Of a stretch of 64,000 nucleotides of DNA, positions 14,161 to 27,378 are shown piece after piece. Origin of the DNA: a virus (lineage: Duplodnaviria; Heunggongvirae; Uroviricota; Caudoviricetes); the IMG/VR virus record IMGVR_UViG_3300006052_000001; one strand, given 5' to 3'. Below the pieces are notes generated by a model. The model made no database searches. It was not told the DNA's origin and saw only the letters and a program-made list of their open reading frames with translations. Position numbers and translations under genes: made by a program. Every line of letters starts with the position of its first letter. Within the stretch, counting starts at the first letter, position 1.

Positions 14161-14339
14161 TGCCTACGTATGAATTTAAGTGCTCTTGCGGAGAAGAAAA
14201 AGCAACTTTCTTTGATTCAATTCAAGAGCACATTGTACTTCCAGTTTGTACTTGCGGGAAAAAGATGAAAAGACAATTTTCCCCGCCAGGTATAATATTC
14301 AAAGGTGGTGGCTTCTACAGCACTTCTAAGAATAAGTAA
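14160..14339 (+). CDS. FmdB-type zinc-ribbon protein (59 aa)
   Basis: MPTYEFKCSCGEE...VCTCGKKM with a paired CxxC; ATG overlaps previous stop. Confidence 0.45.
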   Translation: MPTYEFKCSCGEEKATFFDSIQEHIVLPVCTCGKKMKRQFSPPGIIFKGGGFYSTSKNK

Positions 14340-14340
14340 T

Positions 14341-14414
14341 GCCCTTTTAGCTCAGGGGTTTAGAGCAGCTCACTTGTAATGAGCAGGTCGTGGGTTCAAA
14401 TCCTACAAGGGGCT
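14341..14414 (+). tRNA. tRNA-Thr (TGT)
   Basis: acceptor GCCCTTT/AAGGGGC, loop CTTGTAA, T-loop GGTTCAAATCC. Confidence 0.8.
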
Positions 14415-14438
14415 CTTTTCTTAAAGGAGGATAGAAAA

Positions 14439-15026
14439 ATGAGTAACGTATGGTTTACTTCAGATACGCACTTTTCGCATAAGCTTGTATCGCAAATTCG
14501 CGGATTCGTTGCTAATGATGAAGTAGATGTAAACAGACATGACGAAACCATTATCCGTAACTGGAACGGTGTAGTTAGACCTGATGATATTGTGTACCTG
14601 CTAGGAGATGTTTCGCTTAAGTCTCCAAGGGTATACGCACCACTTACCGTAAGGCTCAATGGAACTATCCATCTTGTCTATGGTAATCACGATCCCGGCT
14701 TTGGCGGAATTCGCGGTGGTGAGAAGCTAACCAGAGAGTACCTAGATGCTGGATTTGCTTCAATGCACGAATTTCTGAGGAAGAAGATCGACGGAAGAAA
14801 CGTGCTTATGTCTCACTTCCCGTACTCAGGGGATCGCGGTGATGACAGAGCTACACAGTATCGACTAAGGAACGAAGGTGTTCCTATTCTTCATGGTCAT
14901 ACTCACCAGAACGAAGTCATTTCAAGGGATAACGGTACTCTGCAAATCCATGTTGGACTGGATGCGTGGGGTTTGTTTCCCGTTAACATAGATGATATTG
15001 TGGAGATTCTTCGACAGGAGGCGTAA
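14439..15026 (+). CDS. calcineurin-like metallophosphoesterase (second copy)
   Basis: AAAGGAGG RBS; SDTHFSH, GDVS, GNHD, GHTH motifs; ORF-track start trimmed off the tRNA. Confidence 0.65.
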   Translation: MSNVWFTSDTHFSHKLVSQIRGFVANDEVDVNRHDETIIRNWNGVVRPDDIVYLLGDVSLKSPRVYAPLTVRLNGTIHLVYGNHDPGFGGIRGGEKLTREYLDAGFASMHEFLRKKIDGRNVLMSHFPYSGDRGDDRATQYRLRNEGVPILHGHTHQNEVISRDNGTLQIHVGLDAWGLFPVNIDDIVEILRQEA

Positions 15027-15028
15027 AA

Positions 15029-15250
15029 ATGAAAGTTCGCGCCGACATGTACGTTGAAATGGATTGTACTAACCACGTAGGCACAGGAGAAAAGCATTAT
15101 ATCGCCAAAGAACTAATCGGAGGCGAGTGCATTCCTGGCTTTGCACACTTTTTCCAGATTTGGGATGAATCCGAAGTTATGGAAAGAGCTAAAATGATCA
15201 TGGATATGGGTCATACGCTAGAACTAACCTATCTACAGGAGGAAAAATGA
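15029..15250 (+). CDS. hypothetical protein
   Basis: 73-aa ORF tightly coupled. Confidence 0.45.
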   Translation: MKVRADMYVEMDCTNHVGTGEKHYIAKELIGGECIPGFAHFFQIWDESEVMERAKMIMDMGHTLELTYLQEEK

Positions 15251-15414
15251 GTGCTCTCGCTCTTTTGAAGGAAATTGACCACATGCTTAACACCTGGCTC
15301 GCTGCTGGTGGGGGCACAAATCACAAGGTTGCGACTCCGCTTGCGGAATTTACGTGCATTTTCGGGCTTATGAAGACGTGGGCATTGCACAACCTTGCTG
15401 CTCTTGTTCGATGA
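15247..15414 (+). CDS. small hypothetical protein (55 aa)
   Basis: strong AGGAGGAAAAATG; competes with the 15354..15656 ORF in another frame. Confidence 0.3.
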   Translation: MSALALLKEIDHMLNTWLAAGGGTNHKVATPLAEFTCIFGLMKTWALHNLAALVR

Positions 15415-15682
15415 GTCAGTTTCACGGTCCTCAGCCTGGTTTTAAAGGCCGCGATTCTCTTAATAAAGGTGTAATGCGACGTAGAAAAGAGCAAAAAAGG
15501 CTTGAAGCGGAAATCAGGGACGAGAATTTGGCTCCTGATGACCCTAGAAGGCGCAAAATCAGGCTAGGAATCACTCCTGAGCCACCAAAAAAGCGCCACA
15601 GAAGCCGAAATAAAGCTCAAGGACCGCTCTCAGTTCAAGTTTTAGAGAGTGTATAATTGAATAAAGCCGGGAAACCGGCCAT

Positions 15683-15753
15683 TGCAGGATAGTATAACGG
15701 CAGTACACATCGCTCTGGACGATGTAGTTGAGGTTCGAATCCTTGTCTTGCAG
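15683..15753 (+). tRNA. tRNA-Gln (CTG)
   Basis: acceptor TGCAGGA/TCTTGCA, loop CTCTGGA. Confidence 0.7.
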
Positions 15754-15789
15754 CTTGCAGTAAATTCACAATCAAAAAATGGAGGAAAC

Positions 15790-15918
15790 ATGGCATTTAA
15801 CATGGATAAAATAGCTGATTGGGATGACTGCCCGGTATGTGACGGAACTGGCAGAGTAAATGGTCAGGTTTGTGACAATTGCAACGGGCTGAGCATGATT
15901 CTTGTTCCCCGTTCCTGA
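15790..15918 (+). CDS. small zinc-ribbon protein (42 aa)
   Basis: GGAGGAAACATG; CPVCDG...CDNCNG. Confidence 0.4.
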   Translation: MAFNMDKIADWDDCPVCDGTGRVNGQVCDNCNGLSMILVPRS

Positions 15919-15990
15919 TGGAGAGTGGTCTAACGGTAGGACACATGACTTTGGATCATGCTAGTGTTGGTTCGAATCCAGCCTTTCCAG
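15919..15990 (+). tRNA. tRNA-Gln (TTG)
   Basis: acceptor TGGAGAG/CTTTCCA, loop CTTTGGA. Confidence 0.75.
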
Positions 15991-16004
15991 CGTAGGGAGT
16001 TTAT

Positions 16005-16139
16005 ATGAGTAAGCAAGATGGCTATTGTGATAACACAAGGCAGCTAAAAGACGTAGATCATATGTGCAGTTGCGATCTATCATGGCGGCACTTTGACTGG
16101 CACAAGTGCTATATCTGCGGGAGAAACTGGGGCTTTTAA
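16005..16139 (+). CDS. small Cys-rich protein (44 aa)
   Basis: GGGAG RBS; CDN...CSCD...CYICG. Confidence 0.4.
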   Translation: MSKQDGYCDNTRQLKDVDHMCSCDLSWRHFDWHKCYICGRNWGF

Positions 16140-16156
16140 AAAATTTCCTCAGCCTC

Positions 16157-16186
16157 TTGACAGACAGGCTCGGGTGTGGTAAGGTA
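16157..16186 (+). promoter_or_regulatory. promoter, TTGACA-N14-TGgTAAGGT
   Basis: conserved family; drives Y-RNA-like and tRNA-Trp/His. Confidence 0.55.
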
Positions 16187-16211
16187 GTACCAAGACGTGA
16201 GAGACAAGGAC

Positions 16212-16333
16212 TTGGCTGGTCCGAGGGTTCTCGATATGGATTGCTCATTCTGTGGTTGGCTTGGGGCGGAATTGAGCGAGGGTGGATAGCACTTTATCGG
16301 CAGGGGTAAAACTTGCTAGGTAGGGCCAGCCTT
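16212..16333 (+). ncRNA. Y RNA-like ncRNA (metazoan-type Ro-binding stem)
   Basis: starts CTTGGCTGGTCCGAGGG; GGCUGGUCCGA matches the Y RNA 5' consensus; 3' strand ACTTGCTAGGTAGGGCCAGCC pairs GGCTGG/CCAGCC; begins about 25 nt after the promoter. Confidence 0.5.
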
Positions 16334-16371
16334 CTACAAACCGGGTTTGCGGTCCTGGAAAAAACCGCTGT

Positions 16372-16443
16372 GCGGAGATAGTTTAATGGAAAAACAAGAG
16401 CCTCCAAAACTCTTAGATGTGGGTTCGAATCCTACTCGCCGTG
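16372..16443 (+). tRNA. tRNA-Trp (CCA)
   Basis: anticodon arm AGAGC-CTCCAAA-ACTCT, D-arm GTTTAATGGAAAAAC, T-loop GGTTCGAATCC; acceptor has one mismatch. Confidence 0.65.
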
Positions 16444-16518
16444 CGTGAGGATCAGTGCAGAATAGGTAGCACCAGCATTGCCGCTGGAACCTCTGATTGT
16501 AAGAAATTTCTGCGACAT

Positions 16519-16592
16519 GGTGGGTATAGCTTAATTGGAAAAGCGCAAGGTTGTGGTCCTTGTCCATCTGAGTTCGAGTCTCAGTATTCACC
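16519..16592 (+). tRNA. tRNA-His (GTG) with G-1
   Basis: acceptor GTGGGTA/TATTCAC plus extra 5' G pairing discriminator C; loop TTGTGGT. Confidence 0.75.
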
Positions 16593-16662
16593 CCAAGGCT
16601 GTAGTTAGCCTGTAAAGAGAATCGACAACCGGAAAAGTCTCATTAATCAAATAACTACACTT

Positions 16663-16734
16663 GCCGAATTCGTTCAATGGATAGGACATACCGCTACGGA
16701 CGGTATGATAGGGGTTCGATTCCCTTATTCGGTA
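16663..16734 (+). tRNA. tRNA-Arg (ACG)
   Basis: loop CTACGGA, T-loop GGTTCGATTCC; G1-U72. Confidence 0.7.
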
Positions 16735-16816
16735 CGCTTAGAATCTCCGTCATAGTAGGCCAAGGAAAGCGCGCCTTACCTGAGATTTGGGACGTGAACC
16801 GTAGCTATGACAACTT

Positions 16817-16889
16817 TGGCCGTTATATCAGCGGTGAGATAGCTCGTCTGATACGCGAGAGGTCGATGGTTCGAATCCATCACGGCCAA
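16817..16889 (+). tRNA. tRNA-Ile (GAT)
   Basis: acceptor TGGCCGT/ACGGCCA, D TATC/GATA, loop CTGATAC. Confidence 0.8.
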
Positions 16890-16921
16890 CGCAACAACTA
16901 AATAATATCTCGGAGGCTCAT

Positions 16922-17074
16922 ATGTATTCGGCAAAAATGCTAGCTAAGGAACACGAACGTCCTGGCTGCTGCACTTTCGATGACCCTTATTACGCGCCGA
17001 AGATGCACGTTCTACGTCGCAGAATCCAGCGCAGAAGAGAAGATAGAAGTTGGAGAAAAGAATATGGTGTGTGA
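16922..17074 (+). CDS. small basic protein (50 aa)
   Basis: CGGAGG RBS; overlaps the next mini-ORF. Confidence 0.3.
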   Translation: MYSAKMLAKEHERPGCCTFDDPYYAPKMHVLRRRIQRRREDRSWRKEYGV

Positions 17075-17171
17075 TCATTGTGGCGGGCAGATGACTAGAA
17101 CGTTCTCTGATATGACTAAAGATATTTACAGATGTTCGTCCTGTGGTTCTGTAGTAACAGAAGATAAGTAG
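17064..17171 (+). CDS. zinc-ribbon mini-protein (35 aa)
   Basis: GGAGAAAAGAATATG; CDHCGG...CSSCG; followed by GCCCTTCGGGGC hairpin. Confidence 0.4.
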   Translation: MVCDHCGGQMTRTFSDMTKDIYRCSSCGSVVTEDK

Positions 17172-17185
17172 CCCTTCGGGGCTTT

Positions 17186-17257
17186 GCCCCTATCGTTTAA
17201 TGGATAGGACAAGAGCCTTCTAAGCTCTTTGTGGGGGTTCGATTCCCTCTGGGGGTA
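17186..17257 (+). tRNA. tRNA-Arg (TCT)
   Basis: loop CTTCTAA; D-arm like tRNA-Arg(ACG); G1-U72. Confidence 0.7.
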
Positions 17258-17288
17258 CGCTTGGGAAGCTGATTTTCAGGAGGTAAAC

Positions 17289-17462
17289 ATGGGTTTGTCT
17301 GAGTGGATTCCTAGGGAAATGCGCCAGGCCAATGAGGCTAGGCACAAAAGAGAGCGCGAGATGGCTCGTATGGGTCTTATTGAGTGGCTGTTGAAAGACC
17401 ACGCAGACGACCCAATACCAGAAGAGAAGAAAAGCTGGCTTAGAAAACAGCTTGAGAAATGA
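17289..17462 (+). CDS. small charged protein (57 aa)
   Basis: CAGGAGG RBS then ATG. Confidence 0.45.
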   Translation: MGLSEWIPREMRQANEARHKREREMARMGLIEWLLKDHADDPIPEEKKSWLRKQLEK

Positions 17463-17616
17463 GAAGACATGATAGGTAACTTGCTTCACCAGATTGCGGC
17501 AGCGATTCATCTGTACGAGATTGGTGGTGCCCGCAACCTACCCGGACTGATTCATTTTATTAATCAAACTTGCGAGCATATCACGGATATCATCAGGACA
17601 CGCAAGTAGAAAAAAT

Positions 17617-17689
17617 GCGGGTATAATTCAGAGGATAGAATATTCGTTTCCTAAACGAACAGTCGGGAGTTCGAATCTCTCTACTCGCA
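17617..17689 (+). tRNA. tRNA-Arg (CCT)
   Basis: acceptor GCGGGTA/TACTCGC, D ATTC/GAAT, loop TTCCTAA. Confidence 0.8.
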
Positions 17690-17757
17690 CAGAGGTAATG
17701 GGAAAAACCCTCTGGACCTTACGAGGCTCACAAATACCAGTAAATATTTCCCGTCAA

Positions 17758-17830
17758 GGTGGCATAGCATAGTGGTTAATGCACCAGCCCGTCAAGCTGG
17801 ATTACGAGGGTTCGAATCCCTTTGTCATCG
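17758..17830 (+). tRNA. tRNA-Asp (GTC)
   Basis: D GCAT/ATGC, loop CCGTCAA (C33), T-loop GGTTCGAATCC. Confidence 0.7.
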
Positions 17831-17928
17831 CTCACTTAGGTATACAGTTGTAGCTGCCGCCGATATAGAAGCGTAGGTGACGTGGAGCAGTGGCTCACTG
17901 ATCAGGCAACTGTACACCGGAATTCTGC

Positions 17929-17999
17929 CGCTGGTTCCTGAGTTGACATATGGGGCTTGGTACGCTTCAGAGCCGGGTTTGATTCCCGGTGGCGGCTCT
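17929..17999 (+). tRNA. tRNA-like element (possible Thr-GGT, aberrant D-arm and T-loop)
   Basis: acceptor GCCGCTG/TGGCGGC, T-arm CCGGG-TTTGATT-CCCGG, candidate anticodon arm GGGGC-TTGGTAC-GCTTC; D-arm does not pair. Confidence 0.3.
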
Positions 18000-18012
18000 T
18001 GGTTCTAAACTT

Positions 18013-18083
18013 GCCCCATAAGCATTAAGGTGATGCAGAAGACTTTTAATCTTCGGAAGAGCGGTCGGTACGTTCATGGGGTA
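18013..18083 (+). tRNA. tRNA-Lys (TTT) with non-canonical T-loop
   Basis: acceptor GCCCCAT/ATGGGGT, D GCAT/ATGC, arm GAAGA-CTTTTAA-TCTTC; T-loop GTCGGTA. Confidence 0.55.
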
Positions 18084-18094
18084 CGCACGGACTT

Positions 18095-18167
18095 GGGCCG
18101 GTAATTCAGCGGTGAGAAATTCCGTCTTATAAGCGGGAAGTCCTAGGTTCAACTCCTAGTCGGCCTA
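18095..18167 (+). tRNA. tRNA-Ile (TAT)
   Basis: 73-nt canonical cloverleaf; loop CTTATAA; T-arm CTAGG-TTCAACT-CCTAG. Confidence 0.6.
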
Positions 18168-18185
18168 CTTAGCCTTGGAGGGTTA

Positions 18186-18557
18186 ATGAATAGCTGGTAT
18201 CATGCAAAATCTGCCGCCCATAAGTGGGGAGGCAAACCAGAAGATTACATAGAAATAGAAGAGTTCATAGACTCTTCTAAAAAGGTAATAGGCGATTCCC
18301 GCCACAGATCAATGTATCATCACACTTTAGGTGTGTGGCTGTGCCAGGAAATTTTCGGCAGGACAATTCAGGTGGCTGAACATAAGGTAGTTCCTGTTCG
18401 CCTGATAGCTGAGCAGCATATCATAGAAGACCTTGGATGGCTGCCATCTCCTGCTGATTACATAAACAACATGAACTTGGTGCCGTGGATGAGCGGCGCT
18501 CAGAAAAAGACTTACTCACTCGATGAAATTTTAGATGCAGGAGGACTCATTGGATAA
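18186..18557 (+). CDS. hypothetical protein
   Basis: 123-aa ORF, GGAGGG RBS. Confidence 0.5.
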   Translation: MNSWYHAKSAAHKWGGKPEDYIEIEEFIDSSKKVIGDSRHRSMYHHTLGVWLCQEIFGRTIQVAEHKVVPVRLIAEQHIIEDLGWLPSPADYINNMNLVPWMSGAQKKTYSLDEILDAGGLIG

Positions 18558-19122
18558 TGAAGACGGCGTTCTAGGTCTGCCGGTTAAAGGCAGTATAAGC
18601 CACTATGGAACTAAAGTTGAGCAGCTACCTACTGAGCAATTGCTAGAAGCAATTAAGGCTTTGCTTGAAGACGACAAGATAGGCACTTTCGGATGGGTTC
18701 AGCAAACTCCGTATTTTAATGACGGTGACGCTTGTGAGTTTGGTGTTAAGATGGTATGGGTTCGCCCTGCTGTTTCTGACAGTGACAGAAGAACACTTTC
18801 TGTTTCGCCTAATATGCTCAAACCCGGTGACATTATTGAAGCTACTTCGGATGAGGATGAATACGAATTCCTGACAGTATCTCGTCGTATAGAAGATATT
18901 GAAGAGCTAGACGAATACTACGAAGACAGTGACGACTACAAGTACGAAGTAAGAACGTATGCTTACGGTGCTGAGTCAAAGTCACCCGAGCATCATTTAG
19001 CTCTAGCTAAAATGCTAGAGAGTGGTCATTACGATATCTGGCTGGAAAATACTTTTGGTGACCCTGCTAGAGTAGTTTTCCATAAGGACCACATTGAGAT
19101 CGAGTTCTACGATCACGACTGA
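18535..19122 (+). CDS. acidic hypothetical protein
   Basis: 195-aa ORF overlapping previous 3' end. Confidence 0.5.
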   Translation: MQEDSLDNEDGVLGLPVKGSISHYGTKVEQLPTEQLLEAIKALLEDDKIGTFGWVQQTPYFNDGDACEFGVKMVWVRPAVSDSDRRTLSVSPNMLKPGDIIEATSDEDEYEFLTVSRRIEDIEELDEYYEDSDDYKYEVRTYAYGAESKSPEHHLALAKMLESGHYDIWLENTFGDPARVVFHKDHIEIEFYDHD

Positions 19123-19170
19123 TATGTTATACTAGTACCAGAGAAGCCGACTCTTATAAAATCGGCGCAT

Positions 19171-19242
19171 GGGCTGTTGGCATGAAGGGGAAGCACTTGC
19201 TTTGCACGCAAGCACATAAGGGTTCGAATCCCTTACGGTCCA
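19171..19242 (+). tRNA. tRNA-Ala (TGC)
   Basis: arm CTTGC-TTTGCAC-GCAAG, T-loop GGTTCGAATCC, acceptor GGGCTGT/ACGGTCC with two GU pairs. Confidence 0.65.
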
Positions 19243-19426
19243 CGATCAGCTAGAGTAATAGACTGGTAATCTATGAGGGTACTGATAGAATGACGGAATC
19301 TATTTTCAGTCGTATTGGACCGTCCGCGATTAGAAATGGCTGAAAGAATATTTCTCCGGAAAAGTAGACGAGTAGGGGCTGTTTACCAACAGTCTATTTT
19401 CTGAAAGCGAAATAACGACGAAATAT

Positions 19427-19501
19427 CTGGGTATCGCCTAGTTTGGTATGGCACCTGATTTGGGGTCAGGAATAGCGCAGGTTCAAATCCTGCTACTCAG
19501 A
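19427..19501 (+). tRNA. tRNA-Pro (TGG)
   Basis: acceptor CTGGGTA/TACTCAG, arm CCTGA-TTTGGGG-TCAGG (G37), long D-loop. Confidence 0.65.
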
Positions 19502-19505
19502 CGGT

Positions 19506-19543
19506 GGAGGGGTGGTCTAGACCACCCCTCCAAACCCATTTTA
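19506..19543 (+). terminator. 12-bp perfect hairpin, terminator-like
   Basis: GGAGGGGTGGTC-TA-GACCACCCCTCC then AAACCCATTTT. Confidence 0.5.
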
Positions 19544-19595
19544 GGAGGAAAGTGTGTGGTAGAATGTAAGTGGAATATTCCGATTCGAAAGGACC

Positions 19596-19976
19596 ATGAA
19601 AATGGCACTTACAGTTAAGACTCTATCGAACTACCCTCAGTTTGGTAACGCTCTTGGCCTGACAAACGTGGACGCATCTGCATTCACGTTCACTAATGGT
19701 GTTTCTACTACATACACAGGTTATGTAGCAGGATACCTTGATGGTGAAGGTCGCGCTAAGCTATTCTACACTGATGGTCAGTCAGTTGCCCTTCCTTCTA
19801 TGGTTAAGGCTACTCAGGTATCTCAGGTAGACGCAGCAGGTAACACAAAGACTGGTGGATACTACATCACTCTTGGTTCATGGGCATCTGCTTCTCCTGA
19901 CTCAGCATCAGCTAACTCAGAGATTTACCTAGACCAGATGGGCATGATCATCGCCGCTTCCACAGCATATGGGTGA
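19596..19976 (+). CDS. Thr/Gly-rich small protein with hydrophobic C-terminus (paralog of 21063..21686)
   Basis: 126 aa; similar N-terminus and C-terminal ...AASTAYG tail to the 21063 ORF. Confidence 0.5.
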   Translation: MKMALTVKTLSNYPQFGNALGLTNVDASAFTFTNGVSTTYTGYVAGYLDGEGRAKLFYTDGQSVALPSMVKATQVSQVDAAGNTKTGGYYITLGSWASASPDSASANSEIYLDQMGMIIAASTAYG

Positions 19977-19999
19977 TCACAAAAAAGTTTTAAAACGGC

Positions 20000-20029
20000 T
20001 TGACAGACCGCTCCCGGTCTGGTAGGCTG
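20000..20029 (+). promoter_or_regulatory. promoter, TTGACA-N14-TGgTAGGCT
   Basis: conserved family; precedes structured leader and tRNA-Tyr. Confidence 0.55.
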
Positions 20030-20032
20030 TTC

Positions 20033-20110
20033 TACAGAGCGAGGGTCCGTTGCTAAGCGAACGCATGAAACACGGCTACGGACTTAGAAATGTACAAGAC
20101 CCTCGCTCTT
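20033..20110 (+). ncRNA. structured leader / candidate small RNA
   Basis: 12-bp long-range helix AGAGCGAGGGTC...GACCCTCGCTCT enclosing about 50 nt; contains GGGTCCG. Confidence 0.3.
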
Positions 20111-20114
20111 CCAA

Positions 20115-20195
20115 TGCGGTTTACTCAAGCGGCCAACGAGATTTGACTGTAAATCAAATGCGAAAGCTACGGGGGTTCGAATCCCTCAACCGCAA
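20115..20195 (+). tRNA. tRNA-Tyr (GTA)
   Basis: acceptor TGCGGTT/AACCGCA, loop CTGTAAA, long variable arm. Confidence 0.8.
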
Positions 20196-20470
20196 CGTTA
20201 ATCAGACAACTGAGGCTGGCTGATTAAAACGGGACACGTTGACAGCGTGAACTTATACATACCGGATAGATAGCCCGTATACAGGCCGGTACTGCTTTCC
20301 GTAACTTACTGTCAATAAGTTGCAGATAAGTCTTAGCCTAGGCGGAAAACGGCTTTGACAATAACCGCTCTTTCCCTTGTGGTCAGAGTCTAAATATTTT
20401 TTCTCTGGTGGTAGTCAGGCAACATATAGGGTCTGACAAGTGTACAAGGGTGGCTAGGTACACAACTTTT

Positions 20471-20553
20471 GCCCCGTTGGCGAAACGGCAGACGCGCTGG
20501 TCTTAGGAACCAGTTCCAGTTATGGAGTGAGGGTTCAAATCCCTTGCGGGGTA
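20471..20553 (+). tRNA. tRNA-Leu (TAG)
   Basis: class II; arm CTGGT-CTTAGGA-ACCAG, long variable arm, T-loop GGTTCAAATCC. Confidence 0.7.
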
Positions 20554-20566
20554 CGTATTAAAACTT

Positions 20567-20638
20567 GGGTTGTTAGCTCAGTTGGTAGAGCGCTGGTCTG
20601 AAGAACCAGGCGGATAGGTTCGATCCCTATACTTCCCA
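20567..20638 (+). tRNA. tRNA-Phe (GAA)
   Basis: D GCTC/GAGC, arm CTGGT-CTGAAGA-ACCAG; acceptor has two U-U mismatches. Confidence 0.65.
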
Positions 20639-20643
20639 CTTAT

Positions 20644-20716
20644 GGCGTCTTAGTCCAACGGCAGAGACAATACACTCAAAACGTATCAAGTTTGGGTTCA
20701 AATCCCAAAGACGCTA
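20644..20716 (+). tRNA. class-I tRNA with anticodon CAA (atypical)
   Basis: 72-nt cloverleaf, 5-nt variable loop, loop CTCAAAA, A73. Confidence 0.55.
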
Positions 20717-20739
20717 CTTTAATAGGCTGATTTAGATAA

Positions 20740-20812
20740 GGCTCTGTATCCCAATGGCAGAGGAAGAGAACTTAAAATTCTTTCAGTAAGGGTTCGACTC
20801 CCTTCAGAGCTA
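20740..20812 (+). tRNA. class-I tRNA with anticodon TAA (atypical)
   Basis: 73-nt cloverleaf, short variable loop TCAGT, loop CTTAAAA, A73. Confidence 0.55.
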
Positions 20813-20833
20813 CGCCAATTTTAGGAGGTTAAA

Positions 20834-21022
20834 ATGGAAATTGAGAAAGCAGAAGTCACTTTTATGACAGCGAATGAGCTAAGAAAACTCGCTGACGCTT
20901 TAGATGATTTTCCGCTTTATCAAGGAGGCGTCTATTACAATGGTGAAAAGGGTCGTGTCTGTGTCATTACAGATAACACAGTAGCTCTAGTCTCTAATTT
21001 TGCAAGACCCTCTTCGCAGTAG
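20834..21022 (+). CDS. small hypothetical protein (62 aa)
   Basis: TAGGAGGTTAAAATG. Confidence 0.45.
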   Translation: MEIEKAEVTFMTANELRKLADALDDFPLYQGGVYYNGEKGRVCVITDNTVALVSNFARPSSQ

Positions 21023-21062
21023 GGTACAATAGAGTCAGAATATTTCCGAGAAAGGTCTTATT

Positions 21063-21686
21063 ATGGCTCTATCTATCGCAACTTTGTCGGGCTTCCCAGT
21101 AGCTAATACTACTTTTGCCTCAACAAAGGTTCCATCTTTTTACCCAACTGGTGTCGCCGTAACTGGTACTAACAGCCCTTCGCCAACAGTGGCAGCAACT
21201 TACTCATACTCGCTTAGCTCAACTTTCCCGTACAACGGAAAGTATGTTTACACAGCGGGTGCTAACGTATGGGTTGCTGGTATTATTGACTCTCAGGGTG
21301 TTGTACCTTCACGTATCTTCTATGCGAACAATGGTTCGGGATACTACACAAGTACTCAGCCACTACCAACACTTCTGAATGTAATTCAGAACCAGTACAC
21401 AGACCCTTACGGATTAACTGAGTACGGTGGCTACGTTGTTACTCTAACTCCTGCTGAGCCTGGTCAGGATGCTGGTTCACCTTCATCAACAGGTAACCTT
21501 AACCAGTTCGGTCTGACAAACGCAACTTCTCAGTTCCCTAACGAGCCTATTCTTGTACCAGCACAGGGTTATCCTTCTGGTGTAGGAACAGGACCAAGCC
21601 CAACATCAGGATACCCACAGCCTTACATGACATTCTATGTGTCAATGGCAGCTATGCTAATCCTGGCTTCTACACAGTACGGGTGA
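21063..21686 (+). CDS. Thr/Ser/Gly/Pro-rich protein with hydrophobic C-terminus (paralog of 19596..19976)
   Basis: 207 aa; ends MAAMLILASTQYG. Confidence 0.5.
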   Translation: MALSIATLSGFPVANTTFASTKVPSFYPTGVAVTGTNSPSPTVAATYSYSLSSTFPYNGKYVYTAGANVWVAGIIDSQGVVPSRIFYANNGSGYYTSTQPLPTLLNVIQNQYTDPYGLTEYGGYVVTLTPAEPGQDAGSPSSTGNLNQFGLTNATSQFPNEPILVPAQGYPSGVGTGPSPTSGYPQPYMTFYVSMAAMLILASTQYG

Positions 21687-21875
21687 TCTGAATGGCTATT
21701 GTTTACAATCAGGTAAGCGTGGATGACACAGCTATTGGTGCCTATGCCCTAAACTGGTCACAGACTGCATGGACAGTGCAGACACTAGTTTCTGCGGCTC
21801 AGGTAACTGCTACTGGCGGAACATACGCTTAATAAATGTGCCCTAGAACCGAGGCCAGAACATATCGGTTCACAT

Positions 21876-21947
21876 GTGATCGTAGCTCAACGGTAGAGCA
21901 CTACGTTGCCAACGTAGCGGTTACGGGTTCAAATCCCGTTGGTCACT
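21876..21947 (+). tRNA. tRNA-Gly (GCC)
   Basis: acceptor GTGATCG/TGGTCAC, D GCTC/GAGC, arm CTACG-TTGCCAA-CGTAG. Confidence 0.8.
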
Positions 21948-21971
21948 CGCAATTTTTAAAGGAGGAATAAA

Positions 21972-22967
21972 TTGACACCTAACTATATTAACCATATCGT
22001 TTTAGTGTTAGATGCGTCATCTAGCATGACCAATCATGCTAAGAAACTAATCGAAGTGGCAGACAGTCACGTAGCTTACTTAGCCCAGAGGTCAAAAGAT
22101 TTAGACCAGGAAACACGTATCACCGTCTACTCGTTTAGCGATAGGAACAGTGCCCGTTGTCTTGTCTATGACAAAGACGTTCTGCGTATGCCAAGTATTG
22201 CTAATCTGTATAAGACCAATGGAATGACGGCTCTGGTAGATGCTACCATCCTGGCTATTGAAGACCTTCACCTAACCCCTCAGAAGTACGGCGAACACGC
22301 TTTTCTTATCTACGTGCTAACTGACGGTCAGGAGAATGACTCTCACGCCAGACCAGATGTTCTTAAGAACAAGATTGCTGCTCTTCCTAATCACTGGACT
22401 CTTGCGGCTTTCGTTCCTAACCAGCACGGTATCTTTGAAGCTAAGAAATTTGGTTTTCCGCCGAACAACATTGCTATCTGGGATACTACTTCTGTAGCTG
22501 GAATGGTTGAAGTTGGCAACACAATCAAGAAGTCAACTGAGCAGTTCATGGTTAACAGGACCAAGGGTATCCGAGGCACCACTAACCTATTCCAGCTTAA
22601 CGTTCTGTCCCCAGATGTCATTGAAGCGTCTTTGCCAAGTATTCCGCCAAGTGAGTTCCGTATGATTCCTGTTCGTCAGGAAGGAAGAATTGACGACACA
22701 GTACTGAATGAGCTAGGCATACCCTACGCTGTAGGAAAAGCGTTCTATCAGCTAACAAAGACTGAGACTATTCAGCCCCAGAAGGAAATTGCTCTTCTGG
22801 CAAATGGCAGAGTCCACGTTGGCAGCAACGCTCGTAAACTTCTAGGACTTCCAGATGACCATGTTAAGGTCAAGCCTGGTGACCATCCTGGTTACACTAT
22901 CTTCGTGCAAAGCACAAGTGTTAACAGGAAGCTACTAGCAGGAACAAACTTGCTAGTATTTAAGTAG
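21972..22967 (+). CDS. von Willebrand factor A (vWA) domain protein
   Basis: AAAGGAGG RBS, TTG start; N-terminal MIDAS motif LVLDASSSM with TDGQEND. Confidence 0.6.
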   Translation: MTPNYINHIVLVLDASSSMTNHAKKLIEVADSHVAYLAQRSKDLDQETRITVYSFSDRNSARCLVYDKDVLRMPSIANLYKTNGMTALVDATILAIEDLHLTPQKYGEHAFLIYVLTDGQENDSHARPDVLKNKIAALPNHWTLAAFVPNQHGIFEAKKFGFPPNNIAIWDTTSVAGMVEVGNTIKKSTEQFMVNRTKGIRGTTNLFQLNVLSPDVIEASLPSIPPSEFRMIPVRQEGRIDDTVLNELGIPYAVGKAFYQLTKTETIQPQKEIALLANGRVHVGSNARKLLGLPDDHVKVKPGDHPGYTIFVQSTSVNRKLLAGTNLLVFK

Positions 22968-22993
22968 GAGTTATATTGAACATTAGATCAAAG

Positions 22994-23614
22994 ATGGCTG
23001 TTGCTCTTGTAGCAGCAGTTAGTATCATCAGTCCAGTTGTGGCTACCACCACCGCATATGCTTCTCCTGTAGCAGTGTCAGCACCGCTAATTAGCGGTCA
23101 GCAAGTTTGCTCAGACACTGGTGCAGGTCTATGTATACAAGGTGCTGCCGGTGACGGTGATGGAGTATTAAATAACAACAGCCAGCCGAGTTCCGATATC
23201 CAAAGATGGAAAGTTGTTTTCGCCACTAGTTCTTGCAACAGCGGCGATGTATCCTACCCCGGTGATCAGTATGGTGGCACTACTTGGTGCCCATTTACAA
23301 ATCACTCTTATGACACTCAGTACGATGGGTACGCTATTACTCACTTTACTGAGCAGTACGATTCTAATTATTGTATAGGTGCAAAGACTTTCGGGCCACC
23401 AATTGCTGACACTTTGCCAACAGTGGTAAATTGCGGTGGAGGTACGGGAGTTAACTTCGTGCAGACTGGCACATACACATACACAAATGTATACCTGTCG
23501 AATACCGCAGGTATCCCCGGAAAATACGATCTTTGCTCAGACGGATTTTCCGGTGATAACATGGTATTCGAAACTTACCAGGCTGTCTATTGTCAGCTAG
23601 CCTGGGTCGGTTAA
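22994..23614 (+). CDS. secreted Cys-rich protein with ricin-type (QxW) lectin-like motifs
   Basis: ATG within ORF 22976..23614; predicted signal peptide; many paired Cys; QRWKV motif. Confidence 0.5.
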   Translation: MAVALVAAVSIISPVVATTTAYASPVAVSAPLISGQQVCSDTGAGLCIQGAAGDGDGVLNNNSQPSSDIQRWKVVFATSSCNSGDVSYPGDQYGGTTWCPFTNHSYDTQYDGYAITHFTEQYDSNYCIGAKTFGPPIADTLPTVVNCGGGTGVNFVQTGTYTYTNVYLSNTAGIPGKYDLCSDGFSGDNMVFETYQAVYCQLAWVG

Positions 23615-23623
23615 AGAAAATTT

Positions 23624-23663
23624 CCACAAGGGCTTGACAGACCGGCCCGAGTGTGGTACAGTA
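23624..23663 (+). promoter_or_regulatory. promoter, TTGACA-N14-TGgTACAGT
   Basis: conserved family. Confidence 0.55.
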
Positions 23664-23734
23664 GTAACTGTGAGCGGGGAGGGTTCGTTCTTTCCATGCT
23701 AGGTTCCTTCAGACCTAAACCGTTCACAGCTTAT

Positions 23735-23812
23735 GCCGCTGTTACTCTGCTGGCAAGGGGTAACCAGATTTTCACTCTGGGTAGGACGAGGGTTCAATTC
23801 CCTTCAGCGGTA
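23735..23812 (+). tRNA. tRNA-Glu (TTC), probable
   Basis: acceptor GCCGCTG/CAGCGGT, arm CCAGA-TTTTCAC-TCTGG, T-arm GAGGG-TTCAATT-CCCTT; D region irregular, 7-nt variable loop. Confidence 0.5.
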
Positions 23813-23900
23813 CGAGTGTTAGATGCGAAGACACAGGGTTACTTCTATCATATGGGATAATCAAAGACACCCTAGTCGCTTTATTCACTAACACATTAGA

Positions 23901-23974
23901 CGCGGGTTAGAGAAGTTCGGTATCTCACCAGCCTCATAAGCTGACATTGCATGGGTTCAAATCCCATACCCGCT
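23901..23974 (+). tRNA. tRNA-Met/Ile2 (CAT)
   Basis: D GAGA/TCTC, loop CTCATAA, T-loop GGTTCAAATCC; 1-72 mismatch. Confidence 0.65.
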
Positions 23975-24052
23975 ACTTAGGTTAGGCCAGGAGTCAAATT
24001 GCCCGACGTAGCTAGTTCGATTCCAGCATCATACTTGGTGTATAGTAGGGTC

Positions 24053-24083
24053 TTGACAGTGTGGTATCCATTAGGATATTATG
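24053..24083 (+). promoter_or_regulatory. sigma70-like promoter TTGACA-N18-TATTAT
   Basis: canonical -35 and -10. Confidence 0.5.
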
Positions 24084-24119
24084 GACGGGACTGTTGAAAT
24101 AAACAGCGAACAGCCTAAC

Positions 24120-24227
24120 CTTTAAGTTTAAAGTTCTAGATGCGGTTATTTGAGTTTCATCAACGCCAGGGACCGACACACTCAAGTATGTGTGTCCTCT
24201 AGAACTATTGTTGGTCGGTCCCACCCT
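24120..24227 (+). ncRNA. structured RNA candidate (interleaved long-range helices)
   Basis: AGTTCTAGA(24132)/TCTAGAACT(24198); GGGACCGACA(24168)/TGGTCGGTCCC(24213); central CACAC...GTGTG hairpin; sits between the promoter and tRNA-Met. Confidence 0.3.
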
Positions 24228-24300
24228 AGTCGGTAAGCCAGAGGCATAAGGCACTAGTCTCATAAGCTAGTATTCATCGGTTCGAATCCGATACTGACGA
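24228..24300 (+). tRNA. tRNA-Met/Ile2 (CAT), second copy
   Basis: arm CTAGT-CTCATAA-GCTAG, T-arm ATCGG-TTCGAAT-CCGAT; 1-72 mismatch. Confidence 0.6.
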
Positions 24301-24445
24301 CTTGGTTTGATGTGAAGAATACGGTTACTTCTAATAAAGGGAACTGGATGTTATAGGTTCGAATCCTATCTGACCGGCTTCATCGGTCAGTAGCTCAATG
24401 GTAGAGCGCTAGTCATATAAAAAGCTCCGTTTTCGATTTTTTCTC
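24301..24445 (+). ncRNA. YrlA-type Y-RNA-like tRNA-mimic, unit 1
   Basis: box TGATGTGAAGAATACGGTTACTTC(24309-31); T-arm ATAGG-TTCGAAT-CCTAT; capped acceptor hairpin CTGACCG-gcttcat-CGGTCAG (24369-91); D-arm TA-GCTC-AATGGTA-GAGC; ends pair GGTTTGA/TCAAACC. Confidence 0.45.
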
Positions 24446-24454
24446 AAACCTATC

Positions 24455-24596
24455 ATCTTGCTAGATGTGATAGAACAAACAGTTACTTCTCATTCAAAGA
24501 GAGAGTTTGCGGTTCGAGTCCGCATGTCGGCTCCACTTGCCGATATAGCTTAATGGTAAAGCGCTAAAAACACTGTAGTTCGCTTTGTACCCTAGC
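24455..24596 (+). ncRNA. YrlA-type Y-RNA-like tRNA-mimic, unit 2
   Basis: box TAGATGTGATAGAA...GTTACTTC; anticodon-like hairpin TTCTC-ATTCAAA-GAGAG (TCA); T-arm TGCGG-TTCGAGT-CCGCA; acceptor hairpin TGTCGGC-tCCActt-GCCGATA; D-arm TA-GCTT-AATGGTA-AAGC; ends pair TTGCTAG/CTAGCAA. Confidence 0.45.
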
Positions 24597-24603
24597 AAAT
24601 AAC

Positions 24604-24721
24604 TTAATATCTGATGCGATAGAATTTGGTTACTTCTAGTGAAAATGGCAAACACAATCAACATCAAATTGATATATCTGGGTTCAAACCCCAGGAAGAT
24701 TAAAACACCAAGTTCGCATTT
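24604..24721 (+). ncRNA. Y-RNA-like repeat unit 3 (no acceptor/D module)
   Basis: box CTGATGCGATAGAATTTGGTTACTTC; T-arm-like CTGGG-TTCAAAC-CCCAG; terminal pairing GATGCGA/TCGCATT. Confidence 0.35.
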
Positions 24722-24737
24722 GTTCTCAGGTATATTT

Positions 24738-24808
24738 GGCACCTTGACCGAGAGGCTAGGTGGCGGTCTGCAAAACCGTATACAGCAGTTCAATTCTGCT
24801 AGGTGCCT
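24738..24808 (+). tRNA. tRNA-Cys (GCA)
   Basis: acceptor GGCACCT/AGGTGCC, arm GCGGT-CTGCAAA-ACCGT, T-arm AGCAG-TTCAATT-CTGCT. Confidence 0.7.
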
Positions 24809-24811
24809 CTT

Positions 24812-24932
24812 TACTAGTTGCGTCTGAGTTCGGTTACTTCAGTTCGAATCTGATATGCCCCTCCAATCATGGGGCATAGCGGTCTGGCCGCTAAACCACC
24901 TGAAAGGGTGTCCCACCCGAAGTCGTTTTATC
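24812..24932 (+). ncRNA. Y-RNA-like repeat unit 4
   Basis: partial box GGTTACTTC; T-arm-like TCAG-TTCGAAT-CTGA; acceptor hairpin ATGCCCC-tCCAatcat-GGGGCAT (24855-77); terminal pairing GAGTTCGG/CCGAAGTC. Confidence 0.35.
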
Positions 24933-24954
24933 CTCTAGTATTAAAATTAAATAG

Positions 24955-25070
24955 CTTTACCAGATGTGAAGACATACAGATACTTCGCTACCAAAATAGG
25001 CGGGCCAGGGTTCGACTCCCGGCCTAATGGGACGGTTCCCTTTCTGTGGTCGATAATGTTCTCTGGTATT
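24955..25070 (+). ncRNA. Y-RNA-like repeat unit 5 (degenerate)
   Basis: box CAGATGTGAAGACATACAGATACTTC; T-arm-like CAGGG-TTCGACT-CCCGG; terminal pairing TACCAGA/TCTGGTA. Confidence 0.3.
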
Positions 25071-25139
25071 TTTACTACCGTCAGAAGCGTAGTTATCGGA
25101 TACTTCATCGCTGGTTAACATACCTGTGCAACAATAGAC

Positions 25140-25167
25140 CGATTACGTCTTTTACTCTGACGGTTTT
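25140..25167 (+). terminator. weak terminator-like hairpin plus T-tract
   Basis: CGTC-ttttactct-GACGG then TTTTTTG; also a long-range CCGTCAGA/TCTGACGG pairing. Confidence 0.35.
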
Positions 25168-25187
25168 TTGTATTCTAGGAGGTAAGA

Positions 25188-25466
25188 ATGAAAACTAGTT
25201 CTGCTTATGTAGATCCTTTCTCTGAAATGGAAAGATGGTTTTACAATCTTCCCTGCCGTTATCTAAGTAATATCTGTCATTGTGGCTCAGGTAAGCCGGT
25301 TCTATATTGGTCACCAGATGACGGAACAGGTTGTGAAGATTGCAGAGGATCGTTGTTTGTTTATATTCCGGCTGCAACGATGTACAACATAATGAATAAA
25401 TTTAACTTCCCTCCCGAACTTCAGAAAGCTGTATATGACCAGCTAGACGGAGATTTGGCAAGATAA
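25188..25466 (+). CDS. Cys-rich small protein (92 aa)
   Basis: TAGGAGGTAAGAATG; CHCGSG...CEDC. Confidence 0.5.
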   Translation: MKTSSAYVDPFSEMERWFYNLPCRYLSNICHCGSGKPVLYWSPDDGTGCEDCRGSLFVYIPAATMYNIMNKFNFPPELQKAVYDQLDGDLAR

Positions 25467-25482
25467 AAAGGAGATGTGAATT

Positions 25483-27117
25483 ATGGGAAAGCTAAACAAG
25501 TACACACCAAAGACAGTTACTTCACCTATTCAGATGAGCACGGTTCCTAACGCTCATACTGCTCTAGGCGGAATTGGTTACGCACCAGCAAACGCTGAGA
25601 GCGAGCTATTCGATCTTGGTATCAACCTTTTTGCCGGTGAGGACAACTACCATGAGTCAGGACAGGCAAGAGATAATCGTTTCACCCGTCTAGTTGAGGC
25701 TGTTGCGGTTAGCAATCCTGCTTGGATTACCGGATTCCTGGGCTGGCTAAGGTCAGAGGGAAACATTCGTACTGCTTCTATTATGGGTGCGGTTGTAGCT
25801 GTACATGCCCGTCTTAACGATCCAAGGTCTGTTGAGGCAGACAAGAACAGTGCCTCTCACGGTCCCTCTTGGAACCGTAGAATCGTTGATGCTGTTTGTC
25901 AGCGTGCAGATGAGCCTGGTGAGTTTATCGCTTACTGGACACAGAGATATGGTAAGAACATTCCTATGCCAGTAAAGCGTGGTCTATCTGACGCTGCTCG
26001 CAGGCTATACAACGAGTACTCATTTATGAAGTATGACAGTGACAAGGCTGGCTGGCGTATTGGTGACGTTATTGAGTTTGTTCACCCTAAGCCAGTTGAC
26101 AACGATCAGGCAGCGCTTTTCGGTTACGCGATTTCTGCCCGTCATGGAAATGCCTTTGAGGACATGTCTAGGCTTAGCAGAATTGAGGCCAACAAGGCTC
26201 TTAGGGAAGAGTTCAAGACTAACCCTGATGTTCTGCTAAACACAGGATTTCTGAAGAAGGCCGGTTTCACCTGGGAGGATGCTCTGTCTCTGGCAGGTAC
26301 AAAGGTGGATAAGGCTAAGCTATGGGAGTCTTTGATCTTCGCAAAGGCAGTGCCTATTTTCGCGCTGATCAGGAATCTAAGGAACATGGAGCAGGCAGGA
26401 ATTAGCCGCGCTGCTATGACAGAAGTTTGCAACACTATTGCTAACCCAGAAGTGATTGCAAAGTCTCGTCTATTCCCATTCCAGATTTACGCGGCTCACA
26501 AGTACGCTCAGTCAATGCACTGGAAGTCTGCTCTTGAGGATGCTATGACATATTCAACCCTGAATGTGCCACAGCTTGACGGAGACACTTTGCTGCTTAT
26601 TGATGCTTCTGGCTCAATGTTCGGCACAAAGCTTTCCGGCAAGAGCGATCTAGAGCGCGTTGAAGCTGCTGCTGTATTTGGTGCTGCTTTCGCTGTGCGT
26701 AACCCTGATACAACAAAGGTAGTGACTTTCTCTAACGACACCAAGATCGTTCCGGTGACAAAGGGAATGTCAATGCTTGGGCTGACAGATAAGATCATGC
26801 GTACTGCCGCAACTCAGCAAAGTGGTACTGCTACTGCTGCTGCTCTTAAGGCAAGTTACACAGGACAGAAGAGAGTTATCATCGTAACTGATGAGCAGTC
26901 TTCTGGTTCTTACGGTTACTACTCAAGAGGTAGCGTTTCTGATAAGGTTCCTGACAGTACATACCTATACTCATTCGACCTTGCTGGACACCGCATTTCT
27001 GACATTCCTTCGGGAAAGAATCGCAGGCACCAGCTTGGAGGTTTGACTGACAAGTCATTCGGCATGATCCCGCTCCTAGAGCGTGGTAACAGTGCAAGAT
27101 GGCCTTGGGAAAAGTAA
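25483..27117 (+). CDS. rsr: Ro60/Rsr-like ribonucleoprotein (TROVE-like N-terminal region plus C-terminal vWA)
   Basis: 544 aa; C-terminal vWA with MIDAS LLLIDASGSMFG; the large N-terminal region fits the Ro60 TROVE+vWA architecture; follows the tRNA-like array; GGAG RBS. Confidence 0.55.
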   Translation: MGKLNKYTPKTVTSPIQMSTVPNAHTALGGIGYAPANAESELFDLGINLFAGEDNYHESGQARDNRFTRLVEAVAVSNPAWITGFLGWLRSEGNIRTASIMGAVVAVHARLNDPRSVEADKNSASHGPSWNRRIVDAVCQRADEPGEFIAYWTQRYGKNIPMPVKRGLSDAARRLYNEYSFMKYDSDKAGWRIGDVIEFVHPKPVDNDQAALFGYAISARHGNAFEDMSRLSRIEANKALREEFKTNPDVLLNTGFLKKAGFTWEDALSLAGTKVDKAKLWESLIFAKAVPIFALIRNLRNMEQAGISRAAMTEVCNTIANPEVIAKSRLFPFQIYAAHKYAQSMHWKSALEDAMTYSTLNVPQLDGDTLLLIDASGSMFGTKLSGKSDLERVEAAAVFGAAFAVRNPDTTKVVTFSNDTKIVPVTKGMSMLGLTDKIMRTAATQQSGTATAAALKASYTGQKRVIIVTDEQSSGSYGYYSRGSVSDKVPDSTYLYSFDLAGHRISDIPSGKNRRHQLGGLTDKSFGMIPLLERGNSARWPWEK

Positions 27118-27130
27118 TTTACAGAAACTC

Positions 27131-27377: not shown

Positions 27378-27378
27378 T

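Follow-up and report, generated by a model that had tools for sequence, protein, structure and literature searches.

Two adjacent type-I tRNA genes with leucine anticodons in a phage related to Streptomyces phage BRock: probable leucine isoacceptors for UUA and UUG codons

A biochemically validated bacterial leucine tRNA (tRNALeu) with a short variable loop (type I, as opposed to the long-armed type II) comes from Streptomyces coelicolor, which possesses one type-I tRNALeu(CAA), with the variable loop ACAGC, and four type-II isoacceptors (Fan et al. 2019, NAR, PMC6614811). The single leucyl-tRNA synthetase of this bacterium (ScoLeuRS) leucylates both types, U8-A14 acting as an identity element and five variable-loop nucleotides being the minimum for good charging, while the enzyme from E. 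coli (EcLeuRS) reportedly does not charge the S. coelicolor type-I tRNALeu; in the same work type-I tRNALeu was regarded as a rarity of some Streptomyces and ScoLeuRS as the only prokaryotic LeuRS that charges both types (PMC6614811). A second counterpart is found in GenBank record AJ604531 (the T5-like 'bacteriophage 5', classified in Tequintavirus), in which a 74-nucleotide (nt) tRNAL2 is annotated as reading UUA and, upon changing its anticodon to CUA, as an effective amber suppressor. A search for literature on phage type-I tRNALeu returned nothing beyond Fan et al. 2019. Here we describe two adjacent short-loop tRNA genes with the leucine anticodons CAA and UAA, located at positions 20,644–20,812 of a 64,000-nt stretch of DNA from a virus of the class Caudoviricetes (IMG/VR record IMGVR_UViG_3300006052_000001), the whole of which is referred to below as the window. 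Judging from their sequences and those of their relatives, they are very probably functional type-I tRNALeu isoacceptors for UUG and for UUA/UUG, respectively, charged by the LeuRS of the host.

Both genes were called by ARAGORN and matched over the full length (positions 1–71) of the general tRNA model of Rfam (RF00005, gathering score 29) with 52–54 bits (coordinates and individual scores are given in Table 1). Direct parsing yielded GGCGUCU UA GUCC AACGGCAG AGAC A AUACA CUCAAAA CGUAU CAAGU UUGGG UUCAAAU CCCAA AGACGCU A for tRNA(CAA) and GGCUCUG UA UCCC AAUGGCAG AGGA A GAGAA CUUAAAA UUCUU UCAGU AAGGG UUCGACU CCCUU CAGAGCU A for tRNA(UAA), each 73 nt long up to the discriminator. Each exhibits a 7-bp acceptor stem that opens with G1·U72 and is followed by A73, a D stem of 3 bp in which C13 faces A22 (D loop AACGGCAG in tRNA(CAA) and AAUGGCAG in tRNA(UAA)), an anticodon loop CUCAAAA or CUUAAAA, and a standard T arm (T loops UUCAAAU and UUCGACU, with U54, U55, C56 and A58 present). 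The variable loops, CAAGU in tRNA(CAA) and UCAGU in tRNA(UAA), comprise 5 nt without a stem-loop, which is the type-I architecture. ARAGORN, Rfam and the parse therefore bear out the first-pass annotation, made from the sequence alone, in its description of 72–73-nt cloverleaves with 5-nt variable loops, similar anticodon loops and A73. U8, A14, A15 and U48 are present in both tRNAs, providing U8-A14 and the A15-U48 Levitt pair, and the conserved tertiary nucleotides (U8, A14, G18G19, U33, U54U55C56 and A58) are all intact. Both tRNAs also share A36A37A38 and a 3' end at which only C74 is encoded, with no CCA. No other register provides a different anticodon for either of them, since U33 and A37 fix the register, and the alternative fold with a different anticodon envisaged in the first-pass annotation was not found. 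A role as suppressor tRNAs was ruled out, as UUG and UUA are the codons read by CAA and UAA, neither of which is complementary to a stop codon.

In terms of sequence, the two short tRNAs look like a tRNALeu from which the variable hairpin has been removed. The adjoining tRNALeu(UAG), which reads CUN, i.e. 86% of the Leu codons of the phage, is 83 nt long and does possess the long variable arm ascribed to it earlier, with a 15-nt variable region that includes the hairpin CCAGUUAUGG; when CCAGUUAUGG is subtracted, UUAGU remains, to be compared with UCAGU and CAAGU of the type-I genes. The D arm of this type-II tRNA is GCGA-AACGGCAG-ACGC, and those of the short tRNAs are GUCC-AACGGCAG-AGAC and UCCC-AAUGGCAG-AGGA; its D loop (AACGGCAGA), A14, A15-U48, A73 and G1·U72 agree with both type-I tRNAs, and the D loop AAYGGCAGA and N13·A22 are likewise common to all three. 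The G1·U72 pair was considered as a Leu-specific mark of the three Leu tRNAs and rejected, as it is found in 11 of the 29 window tRNAs (Trp, two Arg, Ile(UAU), three Leu, two Glu, Lys and Val). The same comparison extends to canonical bacterial type-II tRNALeu in general (E. coli leuZ and leuX as well as the window's own copy), which exhibit A73, A14, A15-U48, G18G19 followed by YAGA, a 3-bp D stem, N13·A22 and, in the UUR readers, A36A37A38, and differ by a variable stem-loop of about 10 nt that is missing from both short tRNAs; E. coli tRNALeu(UAA) likewise has G1·U72 (PMC6614811). The recognition elements of bacterial LeuRS, as listed in the introduction to PMC6614811, are A73, A14, A15-U48, G18G19-U55C56 and U54-A58, and each part of the bacterial tRNALeu identity set (A73, a tRNALeu-type D arm and the T-loop partners) is present in both short tRNAs.

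A search pattern drawn from the two window genes (GGCAGAG-N8-CTYAAAA-N13-GGTTC) was found in at least 120 contigs of one-per-species bacterial genomes. Among the 80 matches listed with titles, 71 belong to Actinomycetota, including the genera Mycobacterium, Nocardia, Gordonia, Rhodococcus, Tsukamurella, Corynebacterium, Arthrobacter and Nocardioides, as well as Microbacteriaceae, Bifidobacteriaceae, Acidimicrobiia and the acI strain IMCC26103; the other 9 comprise Planctomycetota, Chloroflexaceae, Rokubacteria, Abditibacteriaceae, and metagenome-assembled genomes of Christensenellaceae and Deltaproteobacteria. The chromosomal type-I genes reside on megabase chromosomes and are near-identical across genera of Mycobacteriales (Mycobacterium, Nocardia, Gordonia, Rhodococcus and Tsukamurella), which argues for a vertically inherited core gene. 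The 108 distinct chromosomal sequences among the matches listed consist of 100 with the anticodon UAA and 8 with CAA, and exhibit A73 in 107 and G1-C72 in 92 cases. In many Actinomycetota chromosomes the type-I gene is the only UUR-type tRNALeu recovered by the pattern search. The short-loop form is the normal chromosomal UUR-reading tRNALeu of Actinomycetota, and is common in phages; the earlier statement that bacterial tRNALeu(CAA/UAA) normally have long variable arms holds for E. coli-type bacteria, and fails for Actinomycetota and for many phages. The actinobacterial genes share with the window copies the D arm YCC AAYnGGCAG AGR, the anticodon loop CUYAAAA, the variable loop NNAGU, A73, and C74 without CCA, and differ in being GC-rich and mostly G1-C72, the window copies being richer in AT and beginning with G1·U72. 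For the window tRNA(UAA), the best match found on a chromosome has about 80% identity, and the nearest sequences overall, among the matches listed, are viral.

As a stand-in for the isotype scoring proposed in the first-pass annotation, a covariance model (R1) was built from 60 chromosomal type-I genes (alignment A1) and used, with filters off, to scan the window from 13 to 30 kb. Both short tRNAs scored far above the other tRNAs of the window (81.8 bits for tRNA(UAA) and 71.0 bits for tRNA(CAA), versus 15.8–47.4 bits, the best of the others being a tRNA-Arg), a margin that is inflated by up to about 19 bits, by our estimate, as the training set had been retrieved with the window-derived pattern. 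The scores, the Leu features of the body (D arm, A14, A15-U48, A73) and the biochemically validated precedent of S. coelicolor (PMC6614811) support the first of the earlier suggestions, unusual Leu isoacceptors; given the distribution described above, the short loop is far less unusual than was supposed there.

The window tRNA(CAA) agrees with the S. coelicolor type-I tRNALeu(CAA) in the anticodon, the 5-nt variable loop, U8-A14, A73 and the coexistence with type-II isoacceptors, and the genus of that host is the one infected by the closest isolated phage relatives of the window. The differences are that position 48 is C in S. coelicolor and U (in A15-U48) in the window, that the window genes are phage-borne, and that the UAA isoacceptor, type I in the window, is type II in S. 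coelicolor (bldA). Animal mitochondrial tRNALeu(UUR) is also of type I, reads UUR and has A73, but it is organellar, with a relaxed structure and a mitochondrial LeuRS of its own, and is not charged by ScoLeuRS; as far as shown, this resemblance would be one of analogy rather than homology.

The same pattern was found in at least 120 IMG/VR viral contigs, against about one match expected by chance, as estimated from the number of specified bases. ARAGORN identified 129 tRNAs of no more than 78 nt with Leu anticodons at the viral loci listed (100 UAA, 22 CAA, 5 UAG, 1 CAG and 1 GAG) and only 10 long-arm Leu tRNAs, and at many of these loci the short Leu tRNA is the sole tRNA. A set of 129 type-I tRNAs was parsed (126 from the listed viral contigs, the 2 from the window and 1 T5-like) and inspected for features that the pattern does not impose: among these matches A73 occurs in 129/129, A14 in 128/129, A15-U48 in 121/129, C13 opposite A22 in 125/129 and a 5-nt variable loop, with the consensus NNAGU, in 128/129. 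The three long stems covary, with 93–100% of the cells paired and 4–6 pair types at most positions. The position 1-72 is G1·U72 in 81/129 and G1-C72 in 44/129 members; G1·U72 is thus commoner in the phage copies than in the chromosomal type-I copies among the matches listed (16/108). The closest relative of tRNA(UAA) among the matches listed is a tRNA from a viral contig (86% identity). An exact 27-mer of tRNA(CAA) had no match in IMG/VR, and a near-identity DNA search with the locus found no match among isolated phages.

When the family consensus was compared by blastn with INPHARED, 428 records of isolated phages were retrieved, nearly all of the annotated matches being labelled tRNA-Leu. 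Sorted by the word with which the organism name begins, these comprise 194 Salmonella and 99 Escherichia phages, and those listed are 84–123 kb in size; among the remaining matches are Prochlorococcus phage P-SSM7 (92% identity) and phages of Bacillus, Streptomyces, Vibrio, Erwinia, Pseudomonas and Lactobacillus. The window genes' own homologues are in phages of Mycobacterium, Enterococcus, Lactobacillus, Acinetobacter, Synechococcus and Prochlorococcus. Streptomyces phage Belfort has a tRNA-Leu(tag) of 76 nt and a tRNA-Leu(caa) of 75 nt. The sequence of tRNAL2 in AJ604531 (L121:1501-1577) is of type I, with G1·U72 and A73, and since suppressor activity is noted in the record, this member of the family works in translation. 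The T5-family tRNALeu(UAA) shares with the window tRNA(UAA) the type-I body (74 nt), N13·A22, A14, A15, the CUUAAAA loop, G1·U72 and A73, and is likewise phage-encoded inside a tRNA cluster; it differs in having GUUUU as variable loop and AAUUGGCAU as D loop, is about 78% identical to the type-I consensus query, and works in E. coli, a bacterium with exclusively type-II tRNALeu of its own. The T5-family suppressor is annotated as effective in E. coli, yet EcLeuRS reportedly does not charge the type-I tRNALeu(CAA) of S. coelicolor.

The first-pass annotation had also suggested an identity switch, in which a synthetase other than LeuRS would charge the short-loop body and UUA/UUG would be translated as another amino acid. 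In architecture only, a class-I body with a Leu anticodon is what such a switch would look like, and the low share of UUR (13.5% of the Leu codons: UUA 5.8%, UUG 7.7%; 144/14,495 codons or 1.0% of all) could be read as avoidance of ambiguous codons. The anticodon-independent synthetases are LeuRS and those for serine and alanine (SerRS and AlaRS), most others reading the anticodon, and SerRS requires a long arm and AlaRS requires G3·U70 (Giegé and Eriani review, PMC9976931). Both short tRNAs have C3-G70 instead of G3·U70 and no long arm, their bodies carry the Leu features enumerated above, and many Actinomycetota chromosomes yielded no UUR-type tRNALeu other than one of this architecture. In alignments with proteins of Streptomyces phage BRock, to which the window is related, UUR codons of the window face Leu in 33/66 cases (50%; UUA 14/33, UUG 19/33), statistically the same as CUN codons (214/371, 58%; Fisher p = 0.28) and far above the non-Leu codons (3.9% of 4,967, the highest being Met with 16% and Phe with 15%). 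Most of the next partners of UUR (F 7, V 5, S 4, M 3) are common replacements of Leu, and no excess of any non-Leu residue was found opposite the window UUR codons in these alignments. Because UUR aligns with Leu in the same way as CUN does, UUR means leucine and the identity switch is left without support; we find it barely credible. Nothing speaks for the remaining suggestion, a change in decoding through modification of the anticodon. Within the window, the UUR share of 15.8% on the tRNA/early side versus 12.4% in the structural module is no meaningful difference. Leu usage in the long + strand open reading frames (ORFs) is skewed to CUU (35.5%) and CUA (30.5%); UUR accounts for only the above-mentioned fraction of Leu codons, even though the window has 46.5% GC and its third positions generally favour A or U.

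The relationship to BRock is evident from 25 tblastn protein matches in the same gene order, with 71% identity in the capsid and about 55% in the terminase and portal proteins; in both genomes the tRNA cluster lies upstream of the terminase. As the window is related to this Streptomyces phage, the host is most likely an actinobacterium. In S. coelicolor UUA is read by the dispensable bldA tRNA, and the genome contains 145 UUA codons (PMC6614811). In BRock UUA makes up only 1% of the Leu codons, i.e. UUA is avoided more strongly than in the window; in this comparison of two genomes the UUA content of the window, together with its own UAA tRNA, fits the supply of a decoder for a codon with scarce host tRNA.

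Several observations weigh against the assignment of the pair as functional leucine isoacceptors charged by the host. Firstly, part of the 24–34 bit margin obtained with R1 is due to ascertainment, and so is part of the conservation in the viral set, since the pattern was taken from the window tRNAs themselves. Secondly, BRock, the nearest relative among isolated phages, possesses type-II tRNALeu(CAA) and tRNALeu(UAG) and no tRNALeu(UAA), hence the type-I genes are not a conserved trait of the phage lineage. Thirdly, the GC content of the window is far below that of Streptomyces, though compatible with an actinobacterial host, because BRock has 52% GC and yet infects Streptomyces. Fourthly, given the reported rejection by EcLeuRS, charging of the window tRNAs would depend on which host the phage infects. 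Finally, the AU-rich and weak anticodon stem of tRNA(CAA) is closed by an A31·C39 mismatch, and the single-sequence minimum free energy (MFE) fold of this tRNA is not a clean cloverleaf. The mismatch recurs in one further member of the family (L066), and single-sequence MFE folding provides little information on the weak D arm or on the anticodon stem of tRNA(CAA); its cloverleaf is supported despite the MFE result by the alignment to the covariance model and by the covariation in the family.

The mismatch and the poor folding of tRNA(CAA) on its own could be expected if the two genes were non-translational or decaying, e.g. decoys for anticodon nucleases, mimics related to Ro/Y-RNA, or drifting duplicate pseudogenes, and the cluster indeed holds poor tRNA-like elements (the 'tRNA-SeC(tca)' in Table 1) as well as a YrlA-like element near a Ro60/TROVE gene. 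We nevertheless consider this explanation very unlikely: the scores on the general tRNA model fall inside the 35.8–68.3 bits spanned by the remaining 27 tRNAs, the conserved tertiary nucleotides are intact and the family covaries strongly, a T5-like member is annotated as a working suppressor after the anticodon change, and the UUR codons of the window are matched by no other anticodon in the cluster.

It may also be asked whether the tRNAs insert leucine and their short loop is itself under selection, beyond mimicry of the host, as an escape from a host or phage nuclease that targets type-II tRNAs or for use across hosts. Such a role would agree with the occurrence of type-I tRNALeu in T5-like coliphages, P-SSM7, and phages of Bacillus, Lactobacillus, Enterococcus, Vibrio and Pseudomonas, whose hosts' own tRNALeu are of type II, with the ratio of 129 type-I to 10 type-II tRNAs at the listed viral loci (which were, however, chosen for containing type I), and with the excess of G1·U72 in the phage copies; human Schlafens cleave type-II tRNAs according to the title of PMC13245857. 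However, the literature examined gave no bacterial nuclease specific for type-II tRNAs, the window retains a type-II tRNALeu(UAG), and an actinobacterial host that already uses type-I tRNALeu is a simpler account; we therefore regard selection on the loop as quite unlikely. A link to bacterial Schlafen tRNases was considered and found to be unsupported, as the bacterial enzyme studied so far acts on the anticodon arms of tRNAs for Lys, Met and Ala.

If the pair consists of leucine isoacceptors, as we propose, tRNALeu(CAA) would decode UUG and tRNALeu(UAA) would decode UUA and UUG, with the type-II tRNALeu(UAG) covering CUN. The anticodon-independent LeuRS elements (U8-A14, A15-U48, G18G19 within a tRNALeu-type D arm, A73 and exactly 5 nt in the variable loop) are retained, and the host LeuRS, which would already handle type-I tRNALeu if the host is actinobacterial, is predicted to charge both tRNAs with leucine. 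Host enzymes would complete the CCA end, only C74 being encoded. In tRNAs that read UNN codons, A36A37A38 is the motif for i6A37 recognised by MiaA, and both short tRNAs would be expected to receive a modification of this type. Possession of its own UUR decoders would let the phage translate UUA and UUG without relying on the supply from the host.

Table 1. Coordinates of the short-loop tRNALeu genes and of other features of the tRNA cluster in the window
Feature	Coordinates	Strand	Evidence
tRNA gene cluster	13888..29053	+	ARAGORN 30, Rfam 29 above gathering; BRock synteny; 25 tblastn matches
tRNA-Leu(UAG), type-II	20471..20553	+	ARAGORN (20471-20554); Rfam 47.5 bits; sequence comparison; codon usage
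tRNA-Leu(CAA), type-I	20644..20716	+	ARAGORN (20644-20717); Rfam 51.9 bits; R1 71.0 bits; sequence parse
tRNA-Leu(UAA), type-I	20740..20812	+	ARAGORN (20740-20813); Rfam 53.9 bits; R1 81.8 bits
tRNAs with G1·U72 (start positions)	16372, 16663, 17186, 18095, 20471, 20644, 20740, 23735, 28623, 28773, 28981		
tRNA-Glu	23735..23812		78 nt to discriminator
tRNA-Glu	28773..28846		74 nt to discriminator
'tRNA-SeC(tca)', unconvincing	24630..24702		ARAGORN; partial match in permissive local scan (model 4-67, 35.5 bits)
YrlA-like, sub-threshold	24312..24439		Rfam RF02553, 36.8 bits, E = 3.9e-6 (gathering score 69)
YrlA-like, partial	24505..24562		23.2 bits
TROVE (Ro60-like) + vWA protein gene	25483..27117		Pfam TROVE 4e-17; 37% identity to BRock gp191
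Possible degenerate tRNA-like remnant	17927..17997		R1 15.0 bits
Possible degenerate tRNA-like remnant	18013..18083		R1 27.4 bits
Possible degenerate tRNA-like remnant	24464..24532		R1 18.7 bits

The cluster in which the pair resides contains 30 tRNA genes called by ARAGORN, all on the + strand between 13.9 and 29.1 kb, the short Leu pair coming after tRNA-Leu(tag) and tRNA-Phe, and, as in BRock, lies ahead of the module for terminase, portal, capsid and sheath. C74 is encoded after 29/29 window tRNAs and the complete CCA in tRNA-His only; 'C74 only' is also found in 86/120 chromosomal, mostly actinobacterial, type-I genes among the matches listed, and may be a signature of host-type processing of tRNA 3' ends. 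The two tRNA-Glu are unusually long for class-I tRNAs, and tRNA-Glu(UUC) has the lowest Rfam score in the cluster (35.8 bits). The ARAGORN 'tRNA-SeC(tca)' is below the Rfam gathering score in the scan of the whole window and has an acceptor stem of 4 bp and an A where U33 is expected; it is an unconvincing tRNA and is not to be taken as a UGA suppressor, and TGA is an ordinary stop codon in 9/50 long ORFs. About 1 kb downstream of the YrlA-like matches lies the gene for the TROVE (Ro60-like) and vWA protein, whose BRock homolog gp191 is annotated as 'RNA-binding protein'; judging from these similarities, the elements probably constitute a phage Ro/Y-RNA module inside the tRNA cluster. A related-loci search for the Ro60-like protein in IMG/VR provided no confirmed relative, and a 753-amino-acid ORF had no tblastn match in phages. 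Three weak full-length matches to R1, called neither by ARAGORN nor by Rfam at the gathering threshold, may correspond to degenerate tRNA-like remnants between the tRNA genes.

More generally, the short-loop tRNALeu might be a design favoured by phages, either because it evades a defence nuclease that recognises type-II tRNAs or a phage-induced depletion, or because it is charged by many LeuRS and so travels between phages. We give this idea only a slim chance, but it is compatible with the insertion of leucine and only a reading with a selected short loop carries real novelty; if it were true, the window pair would exemplify a general, hitherto undescribed strategy of counter-defence or portability. 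For the phage itself, the two tRNAs are most probably ordinary leucine decoders, suggesting that this BRock-like myovirus, not placed by other means, infects an actinobacterium. For the family as a whole, some of the phages that carry type-I tRNALeu infect hosts such as E. coli, with a LeuRS that reportedly does not accept the type-I tRNA of S. coelicolor, and the architecture, treated as a rarity in PMC6614811, is widespread, occurring across many actinobacterial orders, in hundreds of phages and in a few further phyla.

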